Shown here one piece after another: positions 1 to 34,356 of a DNA stretch of 64,000 bases. A program made the position numbers and the translations under genes. The stretch comes from Amphiscolops sp. MND2022 (taxonomy: Eukaryota). The DNA lies in NCBI GenBank assembly GCA_964187785.1, contig OZ076412.1, positions 65,906,001 through 65,970,000 on the forward strand, given 5' to 3'. Positions within the stretch are counted from its first letter, which is position 1; every line of letters starts with the position of its first letter. The notes under the pieces were generated by a model, which made no database searches, had not been told where the DNA came from, and was given only the letters and a program-made list of their open reading frames with translations.

Positions 1-2
1 CG

Positions 3-3000
3 GCAGAACAAAAAACGCGACCCACGCTGACGCTATCGCAACTAAAAGAGGAATTATGCAGAAACGTAAAATATACTATCGCAGCGCGACCGCTCCCACA
101 TTTCACGAGAGAAGACGAAACGAAGCTGGCCCCAATACAGAAAGTCAAAACCGTTTCTCCGGTGCCGGTAGCCATTAACGTAGACGGTGTAGATATGAAA
201 TTTGACGCTATCGTAGTCTTAGAAGGTCACTTCCCTCAGGGATTGTACTTGGGCCGCCAGGAGTTGCGATGTTATAACATCGGAGTGCAAGATGCCCAGG
301 GGGAGGCTCGCATTGACGAACGAGCATCCCTGGTGGTTGCCTTTGGCAACACGATCCAGGAACCAATACCCTTGTACGGGATGATTGACACCGGTTCCGG
401 TGTCTCCATTCTCTCCCTCAAGGCCTATCAAAAGATTGCATCACCCCACGCCTTGAGCCTCCTACCATATGACATCCAACTGTATGCCGCCAATGGTAAA
501 ACCATCAACACCATCGGAATTGCCGAAAATGTTAGCTTCCAGTTGGGCGGACATACCCTTCGAACCAATTTCATAGTCATTGCCGATCACCTAGGTGCCG
601 AGGACTTCTTACTTGGCAGGAACTTCTTGCGCACTTACAACGTTCTCATGGACCTGACGGCCATGAGGGTCACCATACGAGACCCCAAAGCGCCACGCCA
701 CTTCAAACCCGTCCATGAGGTAAGTGACCATGAGCCATCCCTAGTGATATCCACCGAAAGAGTAGTCCTAGGCCCTTATGAGCGCAAACTGGTGCGAGCC
801 CAAGTTATTTCTCAAAAGCACAACGAATACCTTTTCCGAAACGTAATGATTCGCCCCCAGGGGGTATATAAACGATCCCCCTTTGTTTCAGAAGATACAT
901 TGACGTCTGTTGGAGATGAAGGCATTGTCTTCATAGCCGTACGAAACACTACCCCCTCTGAAAACGTAACCATTCAAACCAAAACTGTCCTCGGTAAGGC
1001 AGAAACTACAAACTTTGTGTTGCAACCTGTGGCTGCCGATACGGCAACCGAAATTGATAAACCTTTGTTTGAACAAGTTAATAGAGTTTATACCGATGAG
1101 TGGTTAAACGAAACGAGTTCCGAATATAGTTCCTTTGCTCAAAATTTTTTGTCCTCTACTGAGATATCTGAAGAAGGATTGTCGGAAAGCGAGAGGCGTG
1201 CTCAGACTGACCCACAGTTACTGAAACCTATACCAGGTCCAGACCTCTCTTCTGTCCTTTCTTCATGGGGGGAGGGAGCGAGAGATCAACTAGCAAGCGT
1301 CCTGAGCGAGTACGATGATCTTTTTATGAAACATAAAGCTGACATAGGGAGATGCAAAATAGCCAAACATCGTATAGAACTAGAGCTGGAAGCTATCCCG
1401 CATAGAGAAGGCGCTCGGCGCATGTCCCCAGATAAGGCAGCAAAGGCTAATCAAGAGGTGCGGAATTTGCTGGCCCTTGGCCTAATTCAACCCTCCTATT
1501 CACCGTGGGCAAGCGGAATAGTCATGGTCAAAAAGAAAACAGGCGAACTTCGCTTCTGCTGTGACTTCCGACCGCTCAACGACGTAACGGTCAAGGACGC
1601 GTTCCCATTGCCCAGGATTGATGAAAGTCTATCCCGGATAGGCAATGCGAAAATTTTCACAAGTATTGACCTAGCGTGGGCCTTCTGGCAGATACCGCTA
1701 AAGAAGCGCGATAGAAGGAAAACAGCATTTGCCTGCGAACTGGGCTTGTTCGAATGGCGGCGCATGCCCTTTGGGCTATGCAATGCATCCGCCACATTTC
1801 AGCGCTCCATTACACGAGCCCTGCAACGGATCCAGCAACGACACGGGAGTGTCGTCATGGCTTACATTGACGACATAGTCATCGCCACGGAAACCATAGA
1901 AGACCACATCGTACGAATCAAGGAAGTATTCGAGTGTCTCCGAGAGGCTGGATTCAAAATGCGTGCCGAGAAATGTGATTTCATGCGCACGGAGACAAAG
2001 TACCTGGGGCGAGTGGTGTCCTCGGAAGGCATCAGACCAGACCCCGAAGCAATAGTCAAAATCCAAGAATGGATGCCCCCGAGAAACAGAGAGGAGCTTC
2101 AGAGCTTCCTAGGGTTCGCAAACTATTACCGGGACTTTGTACCGTTTCATGCAGCCAAGGTGCAACCCCTGCAGGAGTTACTCAAGAAGAGTCAGCATTT
2201 CCACTGGGAAATAAAACACCAAGAGGCCTTCGATGCAGTAAAGGAGGCACTAGCGAATGCGACCGCCTTGGCAGCCCCAAATGAAGACGGACGGTTCGTG
2301 CTCGATACCGATGCTAGTGCGGTAGCGATAGCTGGAATCCTGCACCAGGAACAAGAACACAATGGGAAAACTATTTTACGGCCAATAGTCTTCGGGAGCA
2401 AGTCCCTGACAAAAACGCAACTGAACTATGGAGCACCCAAGTTGGAAATGTACGCAGTATTTTACTTCATAGAGAAATTCCATTCGTATCTCGCAGGCCG
2501 AGAGTTCACGCTCCGCGTGGACAACCAGGCCCTGTCGTGGCTCAAAACGTACTCCATGGACCAAGCCATGATAGGTCGCTGGATAGCCCGTCTGGATCAA
2601 TATAACTTCAAAACGATCCACCGACCTCGCACACAGCATCGAAACGTGGACGGCCTCAGCAAACGGACCAACGACTATGTGCACCGAGAGAAAATCCTTG
2701 AGAAGTTACCGGAAGTGAGTGAAGGATTCAACTTCATGACCAAAGAAGACTATGAAGCACTTCCCACCGTGCCATACTTTGACAAACACGGACGCCCAAT
2801 ACCAAACCATCCAGAGCTCCCGCCGGAAGCTCGAGCCCAACTACCACTGCTGTATATCTTGGGAAAAAGGCCCAAAACGAGCTTGCAAGAACCCCCAGTG
2901 AATGATGCCCCGTGGTACCCCCAAATACAGTGGGAAGCGACACCCACCACAGATGAGGATCACCGACCGAGTCACATCCTCAGCATCACGACCGAAGTGC

Positions 3001-6000
3001 CACCGGCACGCCTAGACACTGGAGAACCTGATCCTGTGCTTGAAGGGATGCCACCCGAATGCCGAAGGCAAGCCCACGCCCTTAGAACAGTCGGAACAGA
3101 GCTGCACGAACACATTCTGACTATACGTGGCCTCAAGGACCTGCACCTAGCACAAAATAGGGACGTGCACCTCCTAGCGCTTAGGAAACTCATGAACGGC
3201 GAACCACTAGAAGACACAATGTTCCCCGAAGACGTGCAGGACTTCGCGCGACGCTACTTCCATCAAAAGAAAGACCTGCTCTTCCTGAACCCAGACGACA
3301 TCCTCTGCGTCAACTACGTTCCGCAACAACGTGCGCTGCACGTGCGACCGTGCATGATAGTCATGCCACAACTATACCAACACGAGATTCTGTATAGGGC
3401 ACACGACGAATCGGGACATCAGGGCGTAGGGAAGGTGCTAGCAAGAGTACAAGAGCGACACACCTGGCCGGGCATCAAGCGTGACATAGTCAATCACATC
3501 AAGCACTGCTTAACCTGCCAGCAGACTAAACACCCCGCCGGGAACCCCTGCTACCCCTTGCAGAACATTAACAGCAGCAATTTCAATGACCTAGTACAAT
3601 TCGACCACCTCAAACTATGCAAGACCGAATCGGGAAACACCGGTCTCTTGGTAATGATAGACCACTTCACGAAATTCGCCGAAGCTGTCCCGTGTGCCCA
3701 CGACGAAAATGATGCTCAAACCACAGCAAAGATCATCCTTAATAAATGGTTCGCCAGGCACAGCACTCCAGCACGCATGCAGTCCGACAATGCCACGAAT
3801 TTCACAGCTGAAATCGCACAAGAGCTAATGAAGGCTTCGCAAGTCACTAAAGTGACATCCACACCAGCGCATCCCCGAGGAAATGGACTCGTGGAAAGGC
3901 AGAACCGAACGTTACTCACACTGCTCAGAGTCTACACTTCGCGACGAATGCAGGATTGGGATGAGCACGTTGATGGAATCCTCGGTGCGTACAATTCAAC
4001 TAGACACGCAACCACGGGATTCTCTCCCTATATGCTCCAACATGGAGCCGAAAAATCCATTCCCTTGTCGTTCATCTACCCAGAATTTGTTGCGCGAGGA
4101 TTCGACTCCAAAGAGGAATTCGTAGAGCACCTTCTAGCCAGACAACAGGAAATCCATGAACTCGTCAGAAGAAATACACACCAAGCACAGCTACGGCAAA
4201 AGCTGAAGTTTGACCGCCACCTGAAGGCCAAAGCGCACGCCGTAGGCGATGCGGTGTGGGTATTCTGCCATATCATACCCAAAGGTGGCACCCGCAAGCT
4301 GATTCGCGCATGGCGTGGACCCCACAAGGTGACTGACGTGTTGCAGGGCGGACGATTATATGTGTTAGACACTGGCCAAAAGGTCCATTACGAAAGATTA
4401 AAAAAGCACGTGCCTGCCCCTTGGGACTGGGCCGCACACCAGCCCTTTGGGCCGGATCAAAACGTAGCCATCATTGCCGATCCGTACGTAGAAGAAAGCA
4501 ATGAGGAGATAGCGTCCGACATCTCTCAAGACTCTTTTCTACCGGAACAACTTCCGGAAGCATCGTTCGAAATGGAACCAACAGGATCGATTCCACCTCG
4601 TACCATTCAGACTCGTACCCAAACGGCACTCGAGCAAGGAATACCCCGAAGAAGATTCAGTCACTTCGGATACCCCTCTGACTCAGATTCCGAAAGAGAA
4701 GAAAATGAGCCGCCGATCCAGAGCCCACCACCGCCAGTAGTGTTCCCCGACTTGGACGACCTAGAACCACTGTACTCCGACCAGGAGGAAATTCAGCCAG
4801 CCGTACCTACAAGTCTGATACCATCACCCTCAGGGACCTCGGCCCCACTACTATCCAATCCGTCCCTGACGGATACCCTGAGTAACTTTCCCTTGTTTGG
4901 CCCCCAATTGGAGGACCCAATCGACCCGATAGAAATTAAACCAAAGTCAGGAACTGAAGACGAAGAAGAGATAACCTATCACAGTCCAAGCCATTGCTCA
5001 ACACAACCCGATACCACGAATCGCAGAGGACGGCCTCGAGGCCGACCACCAGGTCGAGGACGACCCCGCGCCATACCATCCAGTAGAACCACGACATCGT
5101 CGCGAACCCAAACCGCACGATCCAGAAGAGGCCCTAGGACAAGAATGAGCACTCGTGCACCCCCTCGAAGGCTAGACCGAGCAATGACTCTGCCAGAAAT
5201 ACCCGAAAGCCAACAACCACCGGAGGTCCAGAATTCAGAACCGAGACCATCATCGCAAACATCACGATATCAACTGCGAGCTAATAGAGCACCACGATAC
5301 AAGTGTGGAACCTGTGGTTCCCGCAACTGTAGTTGCGTCAAGCATCTGACTCGCGATTCACCGGACAACCGATTGGCCCGGGGAGCGGTAGTCCCTGCCA
5401 GGGATCTCCTGATAGCCAGGACACATTGTCACCCACAACATGAGATCTTAACCGTACAAGCCCAGCGAGAAAAAGTGGAGACACCCCCGCTAGTACACCA
5501 TTTGATCATCACGGTAGAAAAAACTTTCACTAGTGTGGAACGGGAAGTGATACCACCGCTGGAAGAAACACTCATAGCAATGCACGCGACATCTCCCTCC
5601 GACTGCCCAACTTACCGATTCAAGGAATGGACACCACCCCATCGAGGCGGTCTAGAATTCACCCTACATGCCATCATACCGCCCTTGCCACCCTCGATGA
5701 CGTTCGGCGAGCTAGCGAAAGAGGATAGTAGCACGGAGATGATTCGCTGTATCACTGCACACCAACTGTGGGAGAAATATCGCATTGCCTCCCCGCCGGG
5801 AGACATATACCAGCCCACCAATGGATGGTGGCTACTCGTCACCTCTCTAGACGCAACGACATTGGTATCCCCCACAACTCTATTAATGTGCTTAGAAAGC
5901 TTGCGTACTGTAACAGAACCCGAGAACACGCTCTGTTTCCACATGGCCGACATTTATCGTGGCAAGTTCCTAAGCCAACATTGGCTACAATTAATAGCGG

Positions 6001-6740
6001 TCATCTTCTGCCGACAGGCGAAGATACACTTCTTGGATCGACAATCTTATACACCGGAAAAACCCGTCACAGTTAGCGAAGCACTCTCGATAGTACACGA
6101 TTGGTCATCTACCAACATGGGAGATAGACCGCTACGCCGAACCGTCTGGGAAGACCGAAAAGCAATCTTGCAGCATTTAGCACCCCAACCCACTGATGAT
6201 CAGAGCAATACCACCGGCAAATGGCTCATAACCCAGCCCAAAACCAGACCGAATTACCTACCTTGGATAACTTATGACAATACAGATATCCTGCAGGCAC
6301 CTGGCACTGTGATACTATGCTGCCCTGCGGATTTGCTCTCTTACTCTGCCACGATCCGTTACGTTATTCGCGAATACGGTCAAGAAAACATATTTCGCCT
6401 AAGACCGTCAGTTGGCACCGCAATTCGCTTAGTCCGCTCGCCAACTGCACCCTGGAATAACGAAATCTTCCTTCTATGTACCAGAGCATCGAACAAGCAT
6501 CCACTCTTACATGAAGTACTCCATGCGTGTTTGACAAATTTGATAACCCAGCTCCATCGAAACCACATTACCAGAATCCACTTGCCCATCTATGATCCCG
6601 AGCGATCGATGAACCTCCTACCAGCCTGGTACGCCACGCTACGCGACCACTTTGCAGACCACAATATTGCAATAATTTTGCACGATCGCGTCTATGTCAC
6701 GATAGCATCGGTTACCTCAGCCAATTTTGGCGGTAGTTAA
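3..6740 (+). CDS. pol: Gypsy Pol polyprotein, 5'-partial (2245 aa visible), with long C-terminal extension
   Basis: The frame is open from nt 3, so the track's start at 162 is an internal GTG. Protease IDTG (D at 387), RT YIDD (1863-1874), RNase H LDTDAS...EMYAV...DNQAL, integrase HDESGH...CLTC, FDH/SDN/VER and WRGPH (GPY/F) motifs. No stops. Confidence 0.95.
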   Translation, partial: AEQKTRPTLTLSQLKEELCRNVKYTIAARPLPHFTREDETKLAPIQKVKTVSPVPVAINVDGVDMKFDAIVVLEGHFPQGLYLGRQELRCYNIGVQDAQGEARIDERASLVVAFGNTIQEPIPLYGMIDTGSGVSILSLKAYQKIASPHALSLLPYDIQLYAANGKTINTIGIAENVSFQLGGHTLRTNFIVIADHLGAEDFLLGRNFLRTYNVLMDLTAMRVTIRDPKAPRHFKPVHEVSDHEPSLVISTERVVLGPYERKLVRAQVISQKHNEYLFRNVMIRPQGVYKRSPFVSEDTLTSVGDEGIVFIAVRNTTPSENVTIQTKTVLGKAETTNFVLQPVAADTATEIDKPLFEQVNRVYTDEWLNETSSEYSSFAQNFLSSTEISEEGLSESERRAQTDPQLLKPIPGPDLSSVLSSWGEGARDQLASVLSEYDDLFMKHKADIGRCKIAKHRIELELEAIPHREGARRMSPDKAAKANQEVRNLLALGLIQPSYSPWASGIVMVKKKTGELRFCCDFRPLNDVTVKDAFPLPRIDESLSRIGNAKIFTSIDLAWAFWQIPLKKRDRRKTAFACELGLFEWRRMPFGLCNASATFQRSITRALQRIQQRHGSVVMAYIDDIVIATETIEDHIVRIKEVFECLREAGFKMRAEKCDFMRTETKYLGRVVSSEGIRPDPEAIVKIQEWMPPRNREELQSFLGFANYYRDFVPFHAAKVQPLQELLKKSQHFHWEIKHQEAFDAVKEALANATALAAPNEDGRFVLDTDASAVAIAGILHQEQEHNGKTILRPIVFGSKSLTKTQLNYGAPKLEMYAVFYFIEKFHSYLAGREFTLRVDNQALSWLKTYSMDQAMIGRWIARLDQYNFKTIHRPRTQHRNVDGLSKRTNDYVHREKILEKLPEVSEGFNFMTKEDYEALPTVPYFDKHGRPIPNHPELPPEARAQLPLLYILGKRPKTSLQEPPVNDAPWYPQIQWEATPTTDEDHRPSHILSITTEVPPARLDTGEPDPVLEGMPPECRRQAHALRTVGTELHEHILTIRGLKDLHLAQNRDVHLLALRKLMNGEPLEDTMFPEDVQDFARRYFHQKKDLLFLNPDDILCVNYVPQQRALHVRPCMIVMPQLYQHEILYRAHDESGHQGVGKVLARVQERHTWPGIKRDIVNHIKHCLTCQQTKHPAGNPCYPLQNINSSNFNDLVQFDHLKLCKTESGNTGLLVMIDHFTKFAEAVPCAHDENDAQTTAKIILNKWFARHSTPARMQSDNATNFTAEIAQELMKASQVTKVTSTPAHPRGNGLVERQNRTLLTLLRVYTSRRMQDWDEHVDGILGAYNSTRHATTGFSPYMLQHGAEKSIPLSFIYPEFVARGFDSKEEFVEHLLARQQEIHELVRRNTHQAQLRQKLKFDRHLKAKAHAVGDAVWVFCHIIPKGGTRKLIRAWRGPHKVTDVLQGGRLYVLDTGQKVHYERLKKHVPAPWDWAAHQPFGPDQNVAIIADPYVEESNEEIASDISQDSFLPEQLPEASFEMEPTGSIPPRTIQTRTQTALEQGIPRRRFSHFGYPSDSDSEREENEPPIQSPPPPVVFPDLDDLEPLYSDQEEIQPAVPTSLIPSPSGTSAPLLSNPSLTDTLSNFPLFGPQLEDPIDPIEIKPKSGTEDEEEITYHSPSHCSTQPDTTNRRGRPRGRPPGRGRPRAIPSSRTTTSSRTQTARSRRGPRTRMSTRAPPRRLDRAMTLPEIPESQQPPEVQNSEPRPSSQTSRYQLRANRAPRYKCGTCGSRNCSCVKHLTRDSPDNRLARGAVVPARDLLIARTHCHPQHEILTVQAQREKVETPPLVHHLIITVEKTFTSVEREVIPPLEETLIAMHATSPSDCPTYRFKEWTPPHRGGLEFTLHAIIPPLPPSMTFGELAKEDSSTEMIRCITAHQLWEKYRIASPPGDIYQPTNGWWLLVTSLDATTLVSPTTLLMCLESLRTVTEPENTLCFHMADIYRGKFLSQHWLQLIAVIFCRQAKIHFLDRQSYTPEKPVTVSEALSIVHDWSSTNMGDRPLRRTVWEDRKAILQHLAPQPTDDQSNTTGKWLITQPKTRPNYLPWITYDNTDILQAPGTVILCCPADLLSYSATIRYVIREYGQENIFRLRPSVGTAIRLVRSPTAPWNNEIFLLCTRASNKHPLLHEVLHACLTNLITQLHRNHITRIHLPIYDPERSMNLLPAWYATLRDHFADHNIAIILHDRVYVTIASVTSANFGGS

Positions 6741-7071
6741 GAACACGTCTCGCTCTCTTCTTGGCAGATCAGGCCACTGGCCTTTTGCATTGCCTTTCGT
6801 AATTTTGAAGCGCCTTAAAATTTTAACAAAGCCGCGCCGATAAGCGCAAATTTTAGTAATAATCACTAGAAACTTTTTAACCTCGTATTTGTGTGTTCGT
6901 CCTAAAAAGTTTGACTGCCCACCCGTTTATGTAATGTTTTATCTCCAACTGTGACTTGTTTTTCAGTTTTGTCCTGTTGCCTCGCCTCTGCGCGGCCCCC
7001 CTACTTATCACGCCAAATCAGTCTTGCCATCACAATCTTCGGTGCTAAATATTCCTTTATCATCGTTTCCA

Positions 7072-10000
7072 ATGGACCCATCTGCGCGACACCGCCTGCC
7101 TACACCCCAGAACGCTGCGCGTGCCCAACCATCCATAAGGAACGATCCACCTCCAATGATGAGCGAAATAGATGGTCGAGTCGACCAACTAGCTCTTGTC
7201 CAAGACACTCTACTAAACGGAGTGACACCCACAATGATCGCTGGCTTTGCCATGATCATCGCCCAAACCCAAGCCCAGGCAGAGTACCCTGATGTTAGCT
7301 TCACCATCACCAGCCGAGTCGGCCCGATAGAACGCTCTGCCACTTTTCGCGACGGTACCTGGCAAGGGTATGACTTGACCCACAGCCTCATAGATCCTCG
7401 CTCCCACTTAGTCTATGGAGAGCCTACTAGGCCTCCCATGGACCAAGAACGATCACTCCGCATTTCACAATCAGCACTACAGACGCAAACTACGACCCCG
7501 TTGCCCTCACCGCACCCGGTGCAATTCAGCTGCACACTGCCAATCATGCCACCCCCAGTGCTAACACCGCCCATGCCCCTGGCTTCGGAAGGCATTCGAT
7601 TACTCACCACCCCATCTTCTACCTTCATGCCTCCATCTACCTTTCAGGGGGGAGGGGTGCAAGTAGACAATACAACAAGTGCTGCCCTGAGCGAAGAACA
7701 GCCCAGGAGAACGGTGACGTTCAAGGACTCATATGAAGAATTAACTCAAACGTCCTCCAGAACCGAATCACAAGTCTCGGAACCTCTACAAGTCTCAGAA
7801 CCGGCCAGTCTAGTAGGCTTCCAAATGGACCCACAATTCCGAGAACGTCAGCGAGAACAACAAAAGGCTGAAAGTAAGGCGGCCAACACTGTGGTAGACC
7901 TCCGGGAGAAAATTAAAGCTGGAAAGCGAGCCAGAGAGGCAACCACGCAAAGTAGACAATCGAGCTCGACCAGTATCTCGCAACCCACGTCTACCTCACC
8001 CACACAACCAGAAATAAGGAGACCTAGAATAACGCACGAACTCCTAACACATACAGAAAAACGGCAGCTGGATATCACTGCACGCGACGCACTGCGTCTC
8101 CAGCGGGAAATACCAACCACAACGTCACCAGAAGACCCTCTACGACAGAAATTCGAGATCGCTACGGGAACTGGGGACCTCGCCACAAGGCAGAAAATAG
8201 AGAAAGCCACAGTGGGAGTACTCTACAATCGCCCCGTCAAGAAACCCGTGTTTACTCGAGACGGATGCCCCCCATGGTTTAACCGCATGCGAGCAGAACT
8301 GGAGAGAGTAAACTCATCATACATGCGTGTTCCTAACAACTTCCTCCGACAGCGCCCTGGCCGCTTCGACGAAGACCGCTTGCGAACTAAAAACTATGCG
8401 AGGGACCCCATTACAATCCTGCCCATGGGAAAGGACCTTTTACAGAAAACCAGAATAGCCTTCTTCGTCGACTCGACGATGAAGTCTTCATTCAACTCCC
8501 ACAATACCCTCATGGACGTCAGAATACTGAACATGCCCTGTACAACACTGAACGAAATGGCAGAGGTGACCGATAAAATATTCACCCAAGCGGGAACAGA
8601 GACTATCCCACTACCTCCGTTGTTGGTATATTCGAATGTGATAGACCACCTCGCTCTGCGAGGGACCCTGGAATTCTTCCGGCCAGACCATGAAAGGTTT
8701 ACCGAGGGGTTCATCACCGACGAAGTTACCAACTACGTGGAGACGATGGCGAATATTGCCCAAGCTATGCGCAGAAGGAAAGCTACCACTGGAACGGTAT
8801 TTATGTCACCTCCAGGCTACGTGCACCTTCCCCGGACCCTTCAGCAATTCTTGTACCTAATAATGGAGGCAGCGTACGCAAGGGATCTGGCTTTCTACAT
8901 TGTGGCCCCTAATTTACGCATCAGCAATAATAGCTGGCGCCCCTGTGAAGCCTCATACCCAGCCTTCATTGCTGAAGTCTCAAAGGCCCTTCAATCATAC
9001 GTCGGTTACCGCGGCAATTCCCAAATGGTGGCAGATGAAGCAACAGCATTCGATTATGGGATGGAAATGGCTCGTCGATCATTGAACGAGCGTGGAGACC
9101 GAATCGTGAATGATCCAAATGAAAGTGAACGCAATAACCTGGTGGATAACCTCTGGTTTGAACGCCGGGACGAATCGACTATAGACGAGAAAACGCATGA
9201 GCCCAAGTTCCACAAGGAACTCACGAGTCTGATGAAGGAAACCGAAACGATTCAAAGTGATAGAAAGAATTCCTCTATCTTCCCTATAGCACAAATATCA
9301 TTGGACGCGGAACCTGGGCAAAGATCACCCACATTAGCCATGTTGTTGATACTAGCTCAAGATATTGTACGAAGAAATATTCAAGAGCCGACACACACGT
9401 ACCAAACATGGCACGATCAACTACGAGAACCTCTGGGCCAAGTCGCGGACCGACTAGGCATAACATTTCCCGTATTTCTCCACAATATCTCTCCCTTCTG
9501 GCTTCCTTCCCTGGTACAGGCCGAGTACGGCCTGGATGAGCAGCGAATGCGACTATACATGGAGGCCATGGAAAGAGCGACCGTTAGTGAAGTGCTAGCG
9601 TATCTGATGGCCGTGGGGTTGACCATGATGTACCGAGGACCGTCAGCCCTCATACAAAAGTTCGTGCTCAACAAGGGAGGCTCAGCCCTGTTCAGCTATC
9701 TAGTCTTTTCGCAGAATCAAAGAAGTTGGATATCTGCGCTCATTGAAACTCTGGACCCAGCGGGTTCCTTAAAGTTAAAAGCGCAACTAAACTTAAACAT
9801 TCAAGCACTTCTAGTGTGGATTTACTCCACCTGGGTCAATGTCTCTGGCATTATGCATCCTCTGGATGAGTGCCCAGCTATTAACCGAGACCCCAATCAG
9901 CTTCCAGGGTTCCTGTTCCCTACACAAATTGCAACGTTGATGCTCGTGGAGACAGAGGACCTGATACCCCTCATTGCTCCTGTGATCTGGCCTATCTTCG

Positions 10001-10272
10001 GCGCAGTTATGGCCCTGCGCTATCCAACGCAGGCCCTGCGAGTGGCAGCGGTGAGCCCATCCCTCTCGATTCTACACTTCGTGACCTCTAATGGGCCCTT
10101 TCAGGGTCCCACCTATCAATCAGTGATACACAGCTTTGCCAACTTGCGACCTCCCATGGCATACACCGTAATCAAAGACCGCCAACAAGTGGAGCACAAC
10201 TATCTTACGTTGATCAAGGCGCGAGCACGCAGCTCGCTCCCTTTGCCAATGGAAATCCACCCGGTAGTTTAG
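7072..10272 (+). CDS. Retrotransposon accessory ORF2 (1066 aa from first ATG) with SGNH/GDSL-hydrolase-like domain
   Basis: Long stop-free ORF between pol and PPT. FFVDS (Ser at 8473), MPCTT, SNVIDH and SWRPCEASY resemble SGNH blocks I, II, III and V. Pro/Ser/Thr-rich N-terminus, no signal peptide. Confidence 0.75.
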   Translation: MDPSARHRLPTPQNAARAQPSIRNDPPPMMSEIDGRVDQLALVQDTLLNGVTPTMIAGFAMIIAQTQAQAEYPDVSFTITSRVGPIERSATFRDGTWQGYDLTHSLIDPRSHLVYGEPTRPPMDQERSLRISQSALQTQTTTPLPSPHPVQFSCTLPIMPPPVLTPPMPLASEGIRLLTTPSSTFMPPSTFQGGGVQVDNTTSAALSEEQPRRTVTFKDSYEELTQTSSRTESQVSEPLQVSEPASLVGFQMDPQFRERQREQQKAESKAANTVVDLREKIKAGKRAREATTQSRQSSSTSISQPTSTSPTQPEIRRPRITHELLTHTEKRQLDITARDALRLQREIPTTTSPEDPLRQKFEIATGTGDLATRQKIEKATVGVLYNRPVKKPVFTRDGCPPWFNRMRAELERVNSSYMRVPNNFLRQRPGRFDEDRLRTKNYARDPITILPMGKDLLQKTRIAFFVDSTMKSSFNSHNTLMDVRILNMPCTTLNEMAEVTDKIFTQAGTETIPLPPLLVYSNVIDHLALRGTLEFFRPDHERFTEGFITDEVTNYVETMANIAQAMRRRKATTGTVFMSPPGYVHLPRTLQQFLYLIMEAAYARDLAFYIVAPNLRISNNSWRPCEASYPAFIAEVSKALQSYVGYRGNSQMVADEATAFDYGMEMARRSLNERGDRIVNDPNESERNNLVDNLWFERRDESTIDEKTHEPKFHKELTSLMKETETIQSDRKNSSIFPIAQISLDAEPGQRSPTLAMLLILAQDIVRRNIQEPTHTYQTWHDQLREPLGQVADRLGITFPVFLHNISPFWLPSLVQAEYGLDEQRMRLYMEAMERATVSEVLAYLMAVGLTMMYRGPSALIQKFVLNKGGSALFSYLVFSQNQRSWISALIETLDPAGSLKLKAQLNLNIQALLVWIYSTWVNVSGIMHPLDECPAINRDPNQLPGFLFPTQIATLMLVETEDLIPLIAPVIWPIFGAVMALRYPTQALRVAAVSPSLSILHFVTSNGPFQGPTYQSVIHSFANLRPPMAYTVIKDRQQVEHNYLTLIKARARSSLPLPMEIHPVV

Positions 10273-11157
10273 CTACATACCCCCCTCAATCCAAATAATG
10301 GAGCAGTGGCGACGTTTGACGGGTGGGACGTGCCAATTGTCCTGCGTATCTTGAGAGCAATTATCCAAAGATTGGGTGGTCGTAGAAAAGGAGAAGAACC
10401 TACTAGGTTATTATATCCCTATGCGTGTGACACTTCCAGAGTATATTGTGCAAGAACAGAACCCCGTGAGCATACCGCCAGAATCTTAAATACCATTACG
10501 TGTTGGGCCCAGCCAGAACTCGTGGACCTCGCTATACACCAGACCTTCCAACAGCTGCCAACAACCATTCCAACAGTAGCAAAAGAACCAAGCAGGAAAG
10601 ATTTGCCCGTGAATACTGACGTTCCCAGCAACCCGCGTATGGCGCTAGAGATATTCGTACGTCTGCATGGTCTCCAGCGAGAACGCACTCGAGCTGTGGG
10701 CGAAGAATACGCTAGGGGAATACGAACGTTCAAACAACTATTCACCCAATATGGTCACCAAGAATTAGCGGACGGCCTGCCGAACTTGGAGTCAATCGAA
10801 GCCATCCCAGGGATCAGCGATTTGAGCGAAGCTGCCTCTGGCAGCTCTCGCACCGTCCTTCCCACACCCCACATCATTCAAGACACCGATGAATTATTGG
10901 TGGAAGGGGTACAAGATGATGTGCCAAGCGTCATGCCACCATCAGAGGAACCTATGACTGACAACAACTTCACGCTCTCTGATGCCACTACTCCTGTAAG
11001 AGACGAAGTGGAGACCAATATCTCGAACATGGAGGCAGCGGACATAGAGTCAGAGCTCAACAACTTACTGACCATAGATGAAGAATACCAAAATACGGTG
11101 AACGCCATGGGCAGCACCTCCATGCAAGAAGCCCCACAGAACCAGCTGTTGGAGTAA
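10273..11157 (+). CDS. ORF3, in frame with ORF2 beyond a single TAG (readthrough extension or nonsense-split C-terminus of ORF2)
   Basis: The same frame continues CTA CAT ACC... directly after TAG 10270-10272 with no stop until 11157. First in-frame ATG only at 10639. Confidence 0.65.
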   Translation, partial: LHTPLNPNNGAVATFDGWDVPIVLRILRAIIQRLGGRRKGEEPTRLLYPYACDTSRVYCARTEPREHTARILNTITCWAQPELVDLAIHQTFQQLPTTIPTVAKEPSRKDLPVNTDVPSNPRMALEIFVRLHGLQRERTRAVGEEYARGIRTFKQLFTQYGHQELADGLPNLESIEAIPGISDLSEAASGSSRTVLPTPHIIQDTDELLVEGVQDDVPSVMPPSEEPMTDNNFTLSDATTPVRDEVETNISNMEAADIESELNNLLTIDEEYQNTVNAMGSTSMQEAPQNQLLE

Positions 11158-11732
11158 GGGAGTCCTCTGGACCCCCAAGACTGTTAGAACACAATCGAGC
11201 ATAAAAGACCTTATCATCAAGGTACTGATGCCAACTCTTGATTTTAGTTGTGCTACACCATCTTACTGGTGCTGAAAACTTTCAGTGCAATAAACCTTGA
11301 TTTCTGAGTTTTGTTTGATGTATATTTTACTATGCTACCAATGCAACAATGCAATATAGCTACATCCTCTGGGCAGGTCCCGGTTCGGTGCCCTCCCGTT
11401 TTGATTTGAATTTAAAACTTCTACTAAGCCCAAAAGTTGTTGTTACTCACTTGGCCGCGCAGGGGCCCAATTTTAAAGAAAGAAATTTTAACTTGAACTG
11501 AGTGATTAGTGAAAAAACCTTTTTTTAAAAAAAAATCCGACTGTATAGTTTTTAACCTAAAAATCAGTGCTTTTTGAATTTGATGGCTTTGGAGTGCTAA
11601 ACATGCAGTAGCGAAACGAGAGGAATAGTAATGTGAAATCAACATAATCTTGATGTAAGACCTTTCCTGTAAATCTCAGAGTACCCTTTGGGTGCGAGCA
11701 TCCTCTCGTTTGCCGAGGACGACAAACTACGG

Positions 11733-11743
11733 CCCGGGGAGGA
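11733..11743 (+). promoter_or_regulatory. Polypurine tract (plus-strand primer)
   Basis: cccGGGGAGGA immediately 5' of the LTR start TGTAACG. Confidence 0.75.
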
Positions 11744-12461
11744 TGTAACGTCCACCAGTCAACACCAAATTTTCGATGAAAAATTCGATCAAGAACCAAA
11801 AAATGTGCGAATCAAAATGGCCGACCTGGCAGGTCCTTAAAGCCCATAAAATGAAAGAAGAGAGCACGTGAACAAGAGGAACGATAGGAGATAATGAAGA
11901 GAAGAGGCAAAACAACTGATGACATGAAGATCCACACGGGACAGAATACGACGAACGCTACCCGGTGCTATGTCATCCCTGAGAAAGCAGAACCATGCTA
12001 GAATGGCGTGACTGGATCCCCGAAAATCTACAAACAGTAACTGTGTTTTCACTTGGGGCTTATCCCCTTTTGTTTTGTTAATTTATTATAATGCATTTTG
12101 TTATTTTCCCCATGTCTGACCTTCTAGGTCGGCATTTCATGCCCATAACTGTCGAAATGACATTTTTCGAATAAACACTCTTTTGGACCTCGGAAGTATG
12201 TAGGAGATGGCAGGAATACACTAAAGACCTTAGGATACGTTTTTACAGGCTTGTGGGGCGTGTCCGGACTTTGAGAGTGCCGGCACGTCGCCTCGGAGCT
12301 CTAACTAGAGGAGCCTCCTTAGACGTTAGAAAAGTCCCCCATGGAGACCATTTTGGGATCAAAAACTAGTGTCTAGGTATGTAGTAAGACAACGGTCTCC
12401 TGTTTAAGCATCCTAGGCATTGTCCCTCTTCCTAGATGTGCGCCGCTAGCCGGACGTTACA
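11744..12461 (+). repeat. 3' long terminal repeat, 718 bp
   Basis: Starts TGTAACGTCC and ends GGACGTTACA (perfect 10-bp inverted termini); AATAAA at 12170-12175; follows the PPT. The second LTR is not in the window. Confidence 0.85.
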
Positions 12462-12908
12462 CAACTTAATGATTCAAATGGCAATATTCCAAACATGAAC
12501 TGAGCTGGACTCCTCTGGCACAATTGGCCAGTGGTTTTGGGGAAGTGACACATCGTTGCGGTATCTGCTAAATTTTGTAGTGAGAAATTTGGATCGTACA
12601 AACTAACCATACACACACGGCTTTTAGCATGTCCCATGTAAGTTCTCGAATCGATAGATATGATATCAGTCTAGGCAATGCGCAAACGCAAAATACTGCC
12701 GCCCTCCTTGTCGATGGCCTCTTTCTTGCTAGGGGGGAGGTCCTGAAGTCATGGTCACTACCCAGTGTTCGAAGCCATGGTATCGTTGCCAAGATCCATG
12801 GCAAAACCCCTGCTAGCCTTGCCAAGACCTTGCCATTATCTTCCAAAGGCTAAGGATGCCAAGATCAACTATGTTCTTGACAAGAGTTCTATGGTAGCAA
12901 ATCCGTTT

Positions 12909-12982
12909 TTTGGTGACTCCCAGTGTTCGAAGCCATGTTATCCTTAAGGATAGCATGGCTTCGAACATTGGGAGTTACCAAA
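12909..12982. repeat. 74-bp loopless palindrome
   Basis: Arms pair over 37 positions around CCTTAAGG with three G:T pairs; one arm segment recurs at ~12761-12784. Confidence 0.85.
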
Positions 12983-16987: not shown

Positions 16988-19900
16988 ATGGGAGGCAAAA
17001 GAAATAAACGTTCAAGGAGAGTGGAACCTCAGTCTTCAGACAGAGACGAAGACACCTCAGAAACAACATTCACACAAGGTAATGCGACTTTAGTTAATGT
17101 TTCTTAAATTGTTTCTGAAAAAATTTCTTGACAGGAACTTAGGCAGCGAACTAACAGAGACTTCACAAATTGTGAAATCTGAGCAAATAGAAACAACAAC
17201 TTAAGCACTGATGAAGAGGATGCTGAGAAGAACAGGCCTGGTCCTTCTGACCCAGAAAACAATTTCTCAGGATAAAACACGCATCAATATTGAAACAGAC
17301 AAAGAAAAAAGTCAAGCTAATCCCTTCAATTGTTCAGATACGAATGAACTAAGACAGCCTTCAACTCCTCTGGGAGTTGTAAAAGAGTCGTTAGACGATA
17401 CTATCATAATTCTTGGAGATTTACCGGAAGCCGGAAATCACATGGTGACAGTACCTATCAAGAACATGCTGAGACAAAGTTGTGGCAATTCAAACACTAC
17501 AAAGACACAGGGACCACAAGCAGAACACCTTTTTCTCGTGCATCCTCAACCAACAGACCCCGTCAGCCACATTGCTCAAGCAATCCAGATGCTAGCAAGA
17601 AAAAACCAAGATAATCAATTTTCCACACACAAAGTACACTCACTTTCAACCGAAAACTGGAGCAAAACGAGAAATTTGAGTATTTCGAAGACCTTCTTCC
17701 CAGAACACTGAAAATTCAACCACATCTCACTGAAAAGATAAAAATCAACCATGTTCACACCCAAAGCAATGAATTAGCGTTGAAAACTTCAAGAACATCC
17801 AATCAACTGCAACTACTCTTGACGACATCTTAGTAGTCTTCCGCAGAAAGTATGTCAAACGTGAGCATTCAGCCTTCAGCAAAACATAGATTCAACAGGC
17901 TTTTGTTCTAACCAGAAAATCAGAAACTACATTCATGAAGATCTCTAAAAAGCGCCGAAAAAAGTTTGAAGCAGCACCACAGTTGATTGAAAGTCTTTTA
18001 GATGGAAAAATGCCCCCTCATTTGGAGAAATATACTAACCAAGTGTACCTTGAAAATGGTACAAACAACTAAATTGTACGACTTCTAGAAATTAAAATGA
18101 AGCTCAATAGAAAAGAGTTCCCAAAACTTGCAAAACGACAAAAATGTATAAAAACCCAGATGTACCACGATGTTCTCATTGTAACAATCCCCGTCACGAA
18201 AAACACAATTGTTACTTTGGAGCAAACATGAAAAATTGCCCGCTCAAGTGGACACTCACCAAAACTCAACAAACATTCGATTGGGAGTACCAAAAACAGC
18301 AAAACCATTAACCCACGAAACCCGAAACTTTTGACATCGAAGGATTTAAACAAATGAAGCCACGCCTTCAAACAAAATCGCCACAAAAACAAAACTCAGA
18401 CTACTGGCAGCATCGTCTGAGCCCAAAACCCATAAAAACCACTGTACTGTAAAACGACTAAATGACTACAAAATCACGACTTTCAACACCTGACACCATG
18501 CTGAGGGCCTGTACTAAATATTCAACGATGTCCCAGATATTTACAAACTACAAAATTCTGAACGCGATATTGAACAAGAAACACAAAACCAACACTGTAC
18601 AACTTCACAACCTCAAGAAACACAAACTGACCACCTGAATCAACATTCTACATCAACAGCCCAAACTGACAAAGAATTTCTCGAAAATGGTTTTCAATCA
18701 TCTCACATGAAGGCAATAACATCATGTATTTCAACCTTTCTACACATCTTACCATCAAAAAGAAACCCAGCGTGTTCTATTTCCCCATGGATTTCAAAAA
18801 ACTCACTCTGAATGGACTCATTGACACAGACGCCCCAACCAGCGTCATTTCTGAAGCAGACCTCAACGAGACTAACCTTCTATCAAACGAAGCAAGAAAA
18901 GGTACTGGCACCGAATTATCAAGTCATGGTAACAAATGGTCAATTTGAACGGCCCATTGGAACTGAGCGCCACCCTTGCTGACAAAAACTACCTCACCCT
19001 TCAACCTGAAGAAATTCTCGCAATCTCTAGCAAAATGCCACACTTGAGACCACAATGCAACTAGAATTGTCACACTGTATTCACATATGGCGGAACATGA
19101 AAGCAGTTTTATTACTTTTTCGTCGAGTACGGTCAATAACAACGCAGTGGACTACCAAGTGATCAATATCACTGACAGGCCTTACTTACCCATATGGCCG
19201 AGTCCTAACTCCAGAGCAAATCAAGCATCAAACACGTCCATCAACTCTCACCTTTATAATGCACCAACACTTGGAAACACTGATCTGTATCTCAACCAAC
19301 TGATGAAAGTTACTCAACCACAAGATGAACATGAATCATACTGGTTCCCAACACAATATCTAGGACGAACTTCTGGAACTCAAACAACTTGAGCAACTAA
19401 ACCCAATTGACAATGAAGAATCATGAAAGAAAATCCTCGGCAACTTCGACTGGACGGACACCACTCTTAGCCCGCTCAAAAAACAACACATTGAAAACAT
19501 CCTGGTACAAAATCGTGAAATCTTCTCAAGACATCGGTTTGATTTCGGTACCAACAGGCAATTTGAGGTTTAACTGACTCCAAATGATGATGGACCAGCC
19601 TACAGCCAAAGCCTTCTCACTTCGATAAACCTCAAGGACGACATAACTGTTGAACTGTCCTTTCTTCATAGTTACGGAATCATCAGGACATATACTACAG
19701 GACATAAATATACAAGCCCTATTTTTGCACAGAAAAAACTGAAGTGACGTCTTCGTCTCTTGATGGATCTGCGCAAATTCAACAATCTTATCACACGAGA
19801 CTACGAGAACAACAACCACTTAATTAGACCGTTGTCGGATGCGTCACAGCTAATGGCCGAGAAGCTCTTCTGTGAACTTGATTGCTCCCAGGTATACGAT

Positions 19901-22900
19901 TGTTTACTAATTACGGACTACAAGTCATTACATAAGCTGGCCTTCAATTTCGCAAGCCAAACGTTTGCTTATCGACGTTTTGCTCAAGGACTCATCGATC
20001 ATTGCCAGCTTTCTCATCATTAATGAGAGAGTATTTGGACAAGGCAATCAAAGCTGACCAGCGTGCTTAATACGTTGATGCTATTGGTAGCCTTTTTGTT
20101 TGCCTTTTTGTAATTGAGGCGAAACTTTTTCTGAGGTGATGGTTCGTCCCGAGTCGACTTGTTTGACCTAAAAATGACATTTAGCCATCGTGAGTTTGAG
20201 GCCTGCTAGTCTGGCGCATTCAAAAATTGTTTTAATGTTGATGCAGAATTGGAGGGAATCGTTTGCTACTATACTAACGCCATCGTATTGAGCACAGTCG
20301 TCAGCTTTGATTTCCTTGCCCAAATACTCTCTCATAAATGATGAGAAAGCTGACAATGATCGATTGAGTCCTTGAGCAAAACGTGGATATGCAAATGTTT
20401 GGCTAGCGAAATTGAAGGCCACCTTTTGTATTGACTGGTAATTCGCCATTTGTAAACAATCGTATGCTTGGGAGCAATCAAGTTTACAGAAGAGCGTATC
20501 AAGTTGAGAAGACCCGGGGGTCTACCGAAACTACATCCTCGTTGTATGAAAAGCTACCGCCTTTCGTCAAACTATTCAACGAAACATCAAAACTGCATAC
20601 CGAACACGGTTCTGGACACGTTCATTGAATTGAACCAACAATTGGAAAAACCATGCAATCTCGCCCTTAAACAACGGATAGAGAGAAACAACTCATCTTG
20701 ATGATTGATGCCAGTTTTACAACAATTGGATGAGTCATCGTGGTCGAAAATGATTCAAACCAAAAGCTCCAATCCAGAAGGAATACCAAAACCCCGATTG
20801 CTTTTGGGTCCTAAACAAATTTTCCAACATAACTCAAAATGTCAATATACGCAGAAAGAGATCTTAGCAGTTTCTTTTGCGTTTTTTGAAATAGGGCACC
20901 TAACGTGGGGAAGTGGTTTTCCTGTTATAGTTTTTGAGGATAACCATTCGGTAACACGCTCCTTCGAAACTAAGATATTACCACCACCCTGTGGAACGCC
21001 TGTGACTATGTACTACAGTATAACTTCATGATAACACATGTTGCCGAAGCCCTGAAAACTGCTGCTGACTTTCTATCAAGAGCAGAGGTTAACCCAAACG
21101 AAAAACTTTAAAAGAACATACCAAACGACGTTACAACCAAAACAATCGAAGTAAACATACAGTCCACAGGAGTTGCTGAGGAAGAACACTTCTACTTACC
21201 CCCTAGGAAGTCAACCCCCCCCGCTGAAGTCAACCCCCTCGGAACAATAACTGTGGGACGGAAACGAAACATTACGCTAAACAGCAAAAATGGAAATCCA
21301 CAATGACCCAGAAAAAAGTGTCAAAATAATCGACTATAGAGAAAGTCACTTCAAAGTCAGCGCAAAATTCCGCTTAGAACAGAACGATGACCAAGTTCTA
21401 CGCAATCGTCGAGCCAAAATCGAAGGTGAACCCTACGATGAAACTGAATTCACTCAATATTACCGATACGAGCACTACCTGCAAAATGTAACCCGCAAAG
21501 AAATGTAACCCGCAAAAGGTATTCTAGCAATGAGATACCACAACAACACGGATGTGATCTCACTTTATCAAATTCTCTCCCCCAAACAACTCCTAGATGA
21601 ACTCCTACATACTCTTCACGGGCATAACGCAAACCATCAAGGAATCATTAAGATGATCCAAGAAGCAAGACTGAAATACTACTACCTATGCATTGCCAGA
21701 GACATTCGAACATGGGTCACAAAATGTCAAAAGTGCGTTCCAAAACAACCGCATCAATAATGACCTCCTGAAAACAGAACTACTTAATTGTCCTGAATGG
21801 GACCTGGGTCCAGAGGATATCTTGCAAATGGATATTCTTCCAAGTCTTCCCGCAAGCGGTGGGTATGACATCATCACAGCAAAAGACGTGTTTTCACGCT
21901 ACTTGTTTGCATACCAGGTCACAAAAATCACTGCCCCAGCGGTGGCAAGGATTATCATGGACACTTTGAGTAAACACACATATTTGCCCACGACAATCAT
22001 TACCGATATGTGGACTAATTCAACTCACAGGTTACCAAGAAAGAAGACGCAGTCCTAAACACAGAACTCAAACATGCCACCACAAAACATGCAAGAACAA
22101 TCAGATTGTTAGAACCTAAACATGCGACAGTCAAAGCATACCTAAAAGCCGCCACTGGAGAAATCAGAAATAACTGGCACAAATTTCAGCCATTGGCAGT
22201 TTTAAATCACAATACAAAGTACCATGCAACACTCGGATGTGAACCGACATTAGTCTTCCATGGAAAAATTCCACATAATATTTTGGATCTCAAGCTTGGA
22301 TACAACCCAAATCCTCATTACCAACCCCAAACTGAGGTAGCAGAAGAAGTCCAAAGACGAATTGCATTATTTCATAATCAGACGAAGAAAAACAATGCAA
22401 TCTCTTGAATATAAAGCATACTATGACAGAGAAGCAGACGACTGTTGCTTTATCTTGAACCCGAAAGCTGACACACAAGCAACAAAGGTACTCTTTTGTG
22501 AATTTCGATGAGTCGGTTTTTTTAAAGTCGAAAAAGTCTTACCAAACAACAACTATACTGTTAGCAGACGTGGCACAAACAAGACGCAACTCCTTCGTAT
22601 TAGATTAGGGAAAAACATCCCGCAAGTTCCTTTTGCGGATAACTTTGCCAGGGAAGCTGATTGGCAAAAAGAAGATACATTTACCACTCAAGATGGCCTA
22701 TATGCCCACACTTGGGACACTAATTCTGAATGTAGTCCATTTGATACCGAAATGGAAAACTGAGACCAACAAGATGACAGTTGAATATAAACGTACTTCT
22801 CAACCCGAAATGTACCGCTTGCCCACCCGCGGTAAGTTTCAAAACAGTGGGAGGATCCCCGCAGAACGACCTGCTGTGAATGACAAGAAACTCAGATAGT

Positions 22901-30186: not shown

Positions 30187-31012
30187 TGTCCAACAGAATG
30201 TTACTCAATCTACTTTTTGAAACAATTGATCTGAAAATAGGTCAACGGTCATCAAAAAACTTACAGGTAATAAAAGATAGGATGTTCTTTCATTCGATAT
30301 GAACTATTTACAAAAAAAAAGGTTAAGGCTGTATAAGCGATATTGCAACATTTTAAGCCAAATTTCCCCTCTGAACTACGCTACAAAATAGCAATAAATA
30401 AGTCCTCACAGCAATCAATAAACGACTTCGTTTGCTCTGATTAAAACCTGTTACACCGAAACAAGTCGGTAACGGCATAAGTCGACGCCCGGTTAAGGCT
30501 CAAAAAACGCAAAGTACTTCAAATAAGGGAATCTCATTGGGCTAGGAAAAGCTTCTTTCTAACTTCAGAAATGCTAAATGGTTATTTTAATGAAGTCTCA
30601 GAGGGCTTTGTGTTTGAAAGTCTTTTCCTTTCAATGAAGGAGTCAGAAACAGTTTGGTGAAATGAAGAATTTTTGAAAGGTCACACAGAACCGAAGATCA
30701 ACCCACATATTGCTTGAAACCCAAAAAGGTATCTTGAAACATGAAAGCGAGGACACAAAATGAATGGGAGAACCCTTGAATAACTTTCGCATTTGACACG
30801 TTTATTCTCACCTCGACCGAATTTTAAAAAAAAACAATAATTTTTAAAAAGCAGGGTTATCCAAGAAAAATGTCGAAATTGCCCTGAGACCCAAGAACGA
30901 AATACAAGTGCGTTAGTTCATAACTAGCATTCAGAGCCTAGTAAAAAATCAGAATTTCTTCACATGTTAAAAGAATCTAGATTAAGGGGAAAACAAGGGG
31001 AAAAGAAGTTGA

Positions 31013-34000: not shown

Positions 34001-34356
34001 ATGTTTTCCAGGATAGAGCAAACGTGATGAACATTTGTTTCACTCTCGATGTCAAAGTTAGTCATGAATTTCTCGGTGAATTCGTGATTTTTATCAAGCG
34101 TGATAAATAACTGGACAGCTGATGGAACTTGTAAACAGTTAGTGACGGTTTTCAAAGCATTTTGTTTCACTTCGTGATCTTCATGGCCACAAAACTTGAG
34201 TAAGGCCCTATAGAGACCGTCATTGTTAAGAATGACGGATAAACCGTCTTGGGAACCTGACAGTCCGCAAAAGTATTCGCAGGTGTGTTTGATAATTCTG
34301 ACGTCATCGCTTTTCAGCAGGTCTATCAATTCTTCAAGTTCCGGCGATGTCGACAT
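31013..34356 (-). CDS. HGH1: HGH1 (FAM203) homolog, eEF2 chaperone, 354 aa; exons 33666-34356 and 31013-31386
   Basis: NCCFETEFHDWIL...LLPL|AGPEEF...LPIDLQYL...YLILREL...LIGDD motifs; GT-AG junction in phase 1; 1065 nt total. Confidence 0.9.
31487..33447 (+). mobile_element. Tc1-family DNA transposon relic in the HGH1 intron
   Basis: ~24-bp TIRs CAGTGCCTCAC(G)AAATTGTAACAA with TA on the left. Transposase fragments WSDETK, HDNDTKH and WPPHSPIINPFDNLW with stops and frameshifts. Internal 414-bp direct duplication. Confidence 0.9.

Follow-up and report, generated by a model that had tools for sequence, protein, structure and literature searches.

Giant Ty3/Gypsy-type retrotransposons in Amphiscolops sp. 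with 3-bp target-site duplications and predicted macro- and SGNH-fold cargo

Introduction

[quoted passage not shown] In Troyka/Kuafuorterviruses, LTRs measure 100–400 bp and the interior does not exceed 7.7 kb; the finger is of the CX2CX8-10HX4C type, and env is lacking (PMC12440569; PMC11673190). We analyzed a 64,000-nt stretch of the genome of Amphiscolops sp. MND2022 (assembly GCA_964187785.1, contig OZ076412.1, positions 65,906,001–65,970,000, forward strand; hereafter the window), which holds the 3′ 12.5 kb of a giant LTR retrotransposon. This element belongs to a clade with Ty3/Gypsy domain order that integrates with 3-bp TSDs and TG...CA ends, and that carries two cargo modules, i.e., a Pol tail with predicted macro folds and a second open reading frame (ORF2) with a predicted SGNH fold.

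Accessory proteins with related folds have been described before. Bdelloid Vesta elements carry a GDSL/SGNH ORF3 of ~1.3 kb with intact S-G-N-H residues, and their pol has a dUTPase (Rodriguez 2017, PMC5408684). The giant Gypsy elements Burro/GYPSM1 and Ogre bear MATH, BIR, ankyrin, BCL2-like and env cargo; in the available text of the review that treats them, the words "macro" and "SGNH" are absent (PMC6431247). Fish epsilon-like endogenous retroviruses carry macro domain ORFs (PMC4977317 citing Basta 2009), and the OSK domain of Oskar has an SGNH fold without catalytic residues and binds RNA (PMC5785220). In the open literature (a coverage without Repbase, GyDB, Dfam and subscription journals) we found no Gypsy family with the cargo combination presented here, and none that joins 3-bp TSDs with TG...CA ends, Troyka being the only 3-bp LTR group found.

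Results

Structure of the element

Retrieval of the upstream contig gave a total length of 19,089 bp, and the 5′ and 3′ LTRs (718 bp) had no mismatch over the 716 bases compared. The element has TG...CA termini, and a polypurine tract (PPT) adjoins its 3′ LTR. After a leader of ~3 kb, gag-pol forms a single frame that encodes 3,222 aa and includes two CCHC knuckles; its Met is situated 2.9 kb before the window begins. In the window, pol is stop-free over 3–6740 (2,245 codons) and open at the edge. The motifs of protease (PR, DTGS), reverse transcriptase (RT, YIDD), RNase H (RH, DAS) and integrase (IN, HHCC and D-D35-E) are all present. On window pieces, Pfam recognized PR (below cut-off), RT, RH and IN in the Gypsy order PR-RT-RH-IN, with RH directly after RT. 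ORF2 starts with an ATG at 7072 and is stop-free to 10272 (1,066 aa), where it is closed by a TAG (10270–72); the same frame then stays open to 11157.

The initial annotation, made from the sequence of the window alone, had described the long frames, the catalytic motifs, AT-hooks and the clean PPT and LTR termini, and had named high LTR identity as a sign that would support it; all of this was borne out, with AT-hook-type RGRP motifs at ~5025–5070. It had also called the element apparently intact. This is true of gag-pol and the LTRs; ORF2, in contrast, is broken. In 14/14 sister copies the position of the TAG is occupied by a sense codon (a comparison that excludes one duplicate copy and two unpaired stretches), and only 1/150 scored ORF2 frames has the length found in the window copy. 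We hence conclude that the TAG is a private break and that the element is not fully intact.

A young, high-copy family with selected cargo

A search of the host genome with the ORF2 core gave 150 scored matches, all of them 95–100% identical, of which 97 sit in frames of 1,390–1,415 codons. The family of the window element, named A, comprises at least 150 near-identical copies, copy counts being lower bounds. LTR pairs of 15 of 16 fetched copies differ at 0–3 sites and those of the remaining one at 24; this last copy has no TSD and is likely a recombinant of two insertions. Two copies on C6, separated by 46 kb, agree in their flanks and breaks; they are a segmental duplication or an assembly duplicate of one insertion, and one of them was excluded from the counts.

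For nonsynonymous to synonymous rate ratios (dN/dS), distinct codon variants of 15 family A copies were counted against the commonest codon per column; the copies are related, and the figures count variants, not independent events. Variants present in at least two copies gave 0.08 for gag-pol, 0.12 and 0.06 for the first and the second macro region, 0.14 for the SGNH region and 0.17 for ORF2 as a whole, and singletons gave 0.26 for gag-pol and 0.34 for ORF2. Shared nonsynonymous and synonymous variants numbered 57:107 in ORF2, 9:24 in macro 1 and 2:12 in macro 2, each under neutral at P<1e-5. The part of ORF2 3′ of the TAG (7:17) is selected like the rest. Family A is thus young and abundant, with both cargo modules under purifying selection. 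That the accessory cargo is maintained, as initially proposed, agrees with dN/dS of 0.06–0.17 in the cargo and with its recurrence in sister families, and we regard the reality of element and maintained cargo as almost certain.

Integration with 3-bp TSDs and a displaced primer-binding site

We examined 70 insertions of family A and of four sister families (B–E, see below), setting the LTR ends at TG and CA; both ends were found in 67. The TSD was 3 bp in 58 (A 27/33, B 12/12, C 2/2, D 14/17, E 3/3), 4 bp in one, namely the window copy, and 5 bp in one located in a T-run, while seven had none. Mismatched pairs, used as a control, agreed over 3 bp in 2.2%. The TSD of the window copy reads CAAC as predicted in the initial annotation, but its 4 bp are atypical of a family that makes 3 bp. 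All five families have TG...CA ends. Insertions favored A/T three bases outside the TSD (left 54/58, right 51/58).

A primer-binding-site (PBS)-like block starting with TGG was located 16 nt past the LTR end in 56/56 5′ ends where it was seen, out of 64 examined, and 15 nt past it in both family C copies. The block is conserved between A, B and C, whereas the leader otherwise is not. The 3-kb leader is non-coding; over 2 kb of it, A, D and E show 76–80% similarity, while it has only the 23-nt PBS block in common with B and C. With the 16-nt offset unchanged, D and E carry a PBS that differs from the one in A, B and C, which suggests a switch of the primer tRNA. In the standard reverse-transcription scheme, the 15–16-nt spacer between LTR and PBS would come to lie at the right end of the cDNA. 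The 3′ junctions, however, stop at CA, and the PBS-like block is absent there; the spacer is therefore likely cut away before joining.

Relationship to Ty3/Gypsy, Troyka and other giant elements

The RT/RH region finds its best PDB sequence match in Ty3, ahead of caulimovirus, foamy virus and murine leukemia virus chains, and has no tether domain. CX2CX4HX4C knuckles occur in families A, B, C and E, and a GPY/F-like WxGPH variant in A, B, D and E (the C frame tested stops before this module). The clade works like a Ty3/Gypsy (Metaviridae) element and is likely one. The CX2CX4HX4C Gag knuckles, the PR-RT-RH-IN order, the GPY/F-like module, the TG...CA LTRs and the PPT are held in common. Differences are the 3-bp TSD compared with the Gypsy-typical 4–6 bp, which is a trait and not a formal definition, as well as a PBS 15–16 nt off the LTR, a macro-fold tail of ~770 aa, a 3-kb leader and an ORF2 of 1,360–1,490 aa in the ORF2-bearing families. 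In a hydropathy scan, the signal peptide and C-terminal membrane anchor that mark the third ORF of env-bearing (errantivirus-like) Gypsy elements were not found.

With Troyka, as far as described, the clade shares a 3-bp TSD with an occasional 4 bp and a single gag-pol. In contrast to Troyka, it has TG...CA ends, CX2CX4HX4C knuckles, no long finger in any of five frames, a GPY/F-like motif, LTRs of 712–734 bp and interiors of 13.6–17.8 kb across families (17.6 kb in the element of the window). With termini, finger, GPY/F motif, LTR size and interior size all deviating, identity with Troyka was rejected. Burro/GYPSM1 and Ogre resemble the clade in giant size, high copy number and accessory domains in the polyprotein (PMC6431247).

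The Pol tail contains predicted macro folds

The tail of ~770 aa after integrase is composed, downstream of the GPY/F-like module, of an acidic linker, RGRP repeats, a basic four-Cys motif and a folded region. A tail model from 66 sequences had a mean predicted local distance difference test score (pLDDT) of ~71. For its second macro domain (model residues 303–452), a TARG1-like macro fold is predicted: Foldseek returned TARG1 (4j5q) as best match (E 2.9e-7), and VIA gave it Z 16.5 and a root-mean-square deviation (rmsd) of 2.7 over 139 aligned residues, followed by DarG at 15.4. The best structural matches of the tail were TARG1, DarG and viral macrodomains. In the probable first macro domain, strands and helices succeed one another as in the second, whose profile it matches with a score of 29; scores in 30 column shuffles did not exceed 19.9. 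Judged within the tail model, this domain is probably a duplicate. The PARP14 tandem macro aligned over tail-model residues 115–450 with an rmsd of 19. Pfam Macro had no match in 66/66 tail homologues or in window pieces, PDB sequence and profile searches on the cargo gave chance matches only, and all ESM Atlas leads stayed under 0.9 (Macro 0.87, NXPE4_C 0.87, PC-Esterase 0.86).

The Asp after the first strand is kept in 5/5 families and in a decayed relative, L158 (see below). In macro 2, the loop after the last-but-one strand reads DPER in 5/5 families, at a place where TARG1 has a Gly-rich loop. Phosphate-binding loops of TARG1 are Gly-rich; both putative counterparts, mapped from TARG1 motifs, appear to carry bulky or acidic residues instead in 5/5 families. 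The macro folds are likely pseudo-macrodomains that have lost enzyme activity. Fish epsilon-like retroviruses share with the clade a macro domain on an LTR element; they represent a retroviral lineage, whereas here a tandem, degenerate TARG1-type pair stands at the Pol C-terminus (PMC4977317).

ORF2 contains a predicted SGNH fold

The N-terminal third of ORF2 is disordered. Next comes the predicted SGNH domain, with a helical domain and a single conserved hydrophobic segment behind it; this segment contains three prolines. In an ORF2 core model from 100 sequences (pLDDT ~72), residues 50–273 matched SGNH proteins, with Z 13.0 to platelet-activating factor acetylhydrolase (PAF-AH; rmsd 3.5, 183 aligned) and to GDSL lipase, and the top-50 list consisted mostly of SGNH/GDSL-type entries. 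Oskar OSK was among the matches with Z 9.2, level with many others, and a viral structure library gave SGNH-type rows at E 7e-3 or worse. Pfam SGNH was found neither in 100 ORF2 homologues nor in window pieces. The helical half of ORF2 (model residues 333–549) and the tail of ORF2, which were not folded separately, had no structural match. The macrodomains and the SGNH ORF of the initial annotation are thus supported as folds by structure prediction, but not by Pfam.

The block I Asp-Ser is kept in 9/10 covering homologues (of 11, down to ~25% identity). At the catalytic-His position of block V (DxxH), just before the last SGNH helix, Arg is found in 11/11 homologues; the position was derived from motif order and the last helix of the model. 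Because of this Arg, the ORF2 SGNH domain is likely a pseudo-esterase. Chromatin or ADP-ribose interaction on Pol and a lipid/ester-binding ORF in place of env had been suggested initially; ADP-ribose chemistry and esterase catalysis both appear doubtful, as key residues look replaced.

In the hydropathy scan, no signal-peptide-like N-terminus was seen in A, C, E, P0281 and P0270, i.e., in 5/6 long homologues, and in family B the N-terminal hydrophobic stretch is found ahead of the codon at which translation likely begins. Before the ORF2 ATG of A there is a pyrimidine tract with AG; similar tracts exist in D and E, and probably in B just before the likely ATG.

Vesta likewise has an SGNH-fold ORF at the env position of an LTR retrotransposon; here, ORF2 spans 4.1 kb and includes a large helical domain, Arg stands in place of His, and pol bears predicted macro folds. 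The initial view that the combination is undescribed still stands in the literature covered; the SGNH ORF at the env position has a precedent (PMC5408684). Oskar OSK shares an SGNH fold without catalytic residues; it is, however, a host germ-plasm protein, and the likeness is an analogy at fold level only (PMC5785220).

Sister families with and without ORF2

Homologue queries revealed four further families in the host genome, with gag-pol 45–75% identical to A. Family B (19.2 kb) is ~45% identical in gag-pol and 32% in ORF2, family C (18.9 kb) 30% in ORF2, and family E (19.1 kb), with ORF2 in 3/3 copies, 69% in gag-pol and 49.5% in ORF2. Both copies of family C contain antisense frames of 200–282 codons over the LTR/leader and the pol-ORF2 gap. 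Family D is 15.1 kb long and its pol 75% identical to A. None of its 19 copies had an ORF2 match, and its 3′ LTR starts ~1.25 kb past the pol stop; D has identical LTRs and many gag-pol frames of 3,111–3,116 codons, and retains the whole macro tail.

In an RT-RH tree of 68 rows, A, D and E group with support 100, apart from B and C (support 100); the tree was built by a quick method with midpoint root and support from the Shimodaira-Hasegawa-like approximate likelihood ratio test only, its relatives being unnamed and without named Gypsy references. Since A, D and E are set apart from the ORF2-bearing B and C, family D most simply lost ORF2, as far as the tree indicates. ORF2 is dispensable in cis. 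Complete Gag knuckles number at most one in 17/17 D copies (one in 13, none in 4), and two in A (15/15) and E (2/2). The R-U5 of 17 D copies is 97–98.5% identical to that of E in 8, of D1 type in 7, divergent in one and without match in one.

Scanning metagenome contigs for RT yielded 11 loci, mostly short. One of them, L158 (JAAUXW010161668.1), is a decayed relative with 42% identical RT-RH and a macro-like frame directly after integrase (E 7e-7). Among 77 frames, those downstream match the SGNH start of ORF2 (E 1.8e-6) and its helical part (E 4e-4) with 18.6 and 10.8 bits, compared with at most 3.4 bits over 50 runs with shuffled frames. As the same layout recurs in L158, the arrangement of macro and ORF2 is old. 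Only one macro-like domain (4958–5425), placed directly after integrase, was seen in L158; given this single domain, the tandem macro pair, the AT-hooks and the Cys motif may be later additions. Five L158 frames had no Pfam match to Macro or SGNH. ORF2 homologues at ~27–30% identity exist in other assemblies; the distant homologues P0212, P0160 and P0229 were not found in the host genome at strict E-values, and a metagenome scan with the ORF2 alignment gave no locus.

Table 1. Features of the element copy in the window.
Feature	Position	Strand	Evidence
3′ part of gag-pol frame	1–6740	+	frame scan and upstream contig
Aspartic protease (DTGS)	378–626	+	Pfam Asp_protease_2 E 0.0023, under curated cut-off; motif in 5/5 families
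Reverse transcriptase (YIDD) and RNase H	1527–2603	+	Pfam, E 4e-36 (RT) and 4e-26 (RH); Ty3 Gag-Pol as best PDB sequence match (E 6e-103)
Integrase with HHCC, D-D35-E core and GPY/F-like WxGPH module	3366–4405	+	Pfam and motifs
AT-hook-type RGRP repeats in acidic/Pro-rich disordered linker	5025–5070	+	in families A, B, D, E; similar GRGRPP in C
Basic RYxLR...CGTCGxRxCxC motif, possible Zn cluster	5265–5336	+	four Cys invariant in 5/5 families
Probable first macro-fold domain	5691–6035	+	secondary-structure order; profile match to second macro domain
TARG1/DarG-like macro-fold domain (predicted)	6246–6695	+	Foldseek 4j5q E 2.9e-7; VIA Z 16.5
Pyrimidine tract and AG, candidate splice acceptor for ORF2 mRNA	6955–6966	+	similar tracts in sister families
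ORF2 frame, ~1,361 aa in sister copies, interrupted here by TAG 10270–10272	7072–11157	+	frame scan, sister copies
Predicted SGNH-fold domain with retained block I Asp-Ser (Ser 8473); Arg (8938) where catalytic His is expected	8347–9018	+	structure prediction, alignment
Single conserved hydrophobic segment of ORF2	9961–10017	+	Kyte-Doolittle 1.6–2.3 in 6/6 long homologues
Polypurine tract adjoining LTR	11731–11743	+	sequence
3′ LTR, 718 bp, TG...CA	11744–12461	+	identical to 5′ LTR at C4:65899373-65900090 of host genome
Target-site duplication CAAC, 4 bp (family norm 3 bp)	12462–12465	+	flank comparison

Genomic neighborhood

About 13 kb beyond the 3′ LTR lies an Argonaute/Piwi-family gene in exons (25441–30204, minus strand) with an RG-repeat N-terminus, ArgoL1, PAZ (E 3.5e-7) and Piwi (E 1.2e-34). 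An exon with DUF383 (E 3.4e-27; 33661–34371, minus strand) we take to be HGH1-like. The window further contains a 37-nt loopless hairpin (12909–12982), an element with long inverted arms resembling a miniature inverted-repeat transposable element (19859–20500), a Tc1-type transposase piece (32416–32916, plus strand) and a long interspersed nuclear element with endonuclease and RT in separate frames (55126–57104, plus strand).

Discussion

The 3-bp TSDs with TG...CA ends, the displaced PBS and the ORF2-less sister family are new traits that the initial annotation had missed. The 19-kb elements of this young, high-copy clade have Ty3/Gypsy domain order and duplicate 3 bp of their target on integration; we propose that their two selected cargo modules are non-catalytic adaptors. 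Priming by a tRNA 16 nt off the LTR would leave a long extension on the right cDNA end, which would be trimmed to CA before joining. The tail of AT-hooks, Cys motif and tandem macro folds would stay on the integrase and tether it to chromatin, like the chromodomain in chromoviruses. ORF2 would be made from spliced RNA, as env is, and, being without hydrolysis owing to the His to Arg exchange, its SGNH fold would likely bind RNA or lipid to route the particle. It would work as does the OSK domain of Oskar, or the esterase in ORF1 of non-LTR elements, and confer a gain in fitness without being needed in cis. As a whole, and with its folds predicted, we hold this mechanism to be slightly favored by the data. 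A more far-reaching version is put forward tentatively: an old, undescribed Gypsy-type lineage whose integrase trims a 16-nt extension from one cDNA end and cuts the target with a 3-bp stagger, a geometry for which we found no report among TG...CA elements. Two dead-enzyme modules would steer it, namely a tail of tandem pseudo-macrodomains and a pseudo-esterase in the place of env, and sharing in trans with sister families that lack ORF2 would be possible.

Several points weigh against this mechanism. Both folds come from models with mean pLDDT ~71, without Pfam or PDB sequence support, and the best SGNH Foldseek value for ORF2 is only E 8e-3 (with ZfL2-1 esterase among the rows). The active-site correspondences of macro and SGNH domains were taken from motif order and not from superposed coordinates. 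An inert scaffold need not keep the block I Ser that 9/10 homologues have. The acceptor tract is unclear in family C. The sole insertion bias seen is weak and may stem from the integrase core. Family D may obtain ORF2 in trans, so that ORF2 is not necessarily dispensable, and the binding and localization roles of both modules are proposals only.

ORF2 might instead be an env substitute that acts on membranes, whether or not by unusual Ser-based catalysis, and helps particles to cross them between cells. Its env-like position, the candidate splice acceptor, the retained block I Ser and a hydrophobic segment conserved in 6/6 long homologues fit this idea, which has been put forward for GDSL ORF3s (PMC5408684), and the loss of ORF2 in D resembles env loss. 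We nevertheless consider it unlikely: the N-termini of 5/6 long homologues are not signal-peptide-like and the stretch in B precedes the likely start, His is replaced by Arg, and the hydrophobic segment with its three prolines may be buried.

Slightly less probable still is a role of ORF2 as a trans-acting silencing suppressor or germ-granule RNA binder from which the ORF2-less family D benefits. Oskar OSK among the fold matches would agree with this, although it is tied with many others. The E-like R-U5 in 8/17 D copies is what co-packaging and recombination would yield, but may also reflect common ancestry; likewise, D copies have at most one complete Gag knuckle compared with two in A and E, but the first knuckle is kept in 13/17. 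Moreover, a purely trans-acting product would be hard to keep selected in four families.

That the macro folds counter host ADP-ribosylation defenses, as alphavirus and coronavirus macrodomains do, we judge improbable. TARG1, DarG and viral macrodomains are the closest structures, the first-strand Asp persists in 5/5 families and in L158, and fish endogenous retroviruses provide macro ORFs as a parallel (PMC4977317 citing Basta 2009). Against this, bulky or acidic residues appear to take the place of both Gly-rich phosphate loops of TARG1 in all five families, and Pfam Macro matched none of the 66 members.

A Troyka element is very remote despite its 3-bp TSD with a rare 4-bp exception, given the differences listed above, as is cargo of neutral captured DNA with dN/dS far under 1; programmed readthrough at 10270, suggested initially from the 294 codons open beyond the TAG, is rejected with near certainty, the stop being private to the window copy.

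Compared with Troyka as described (PMC12440569), this Gypsy-type clade would be a second, independent origin of 3-bp TSDs, here together with ordinary TG...CA ends. As a natural system, it allows one to ask how the intasome sets the stagger length and how far it can trim a cDNA end. Annotation tools that require 4–6-bp TSDs or an LTR-adjacent PBS would likely miss such abundant elements, whose cargo is moreover invisible to Pfam. Finally, sister families with and without ORF2, in hundreds of young copies, provide a comparison for the role of non-env accessory ORFs, a question since the GDSL ORFs of Vesta.

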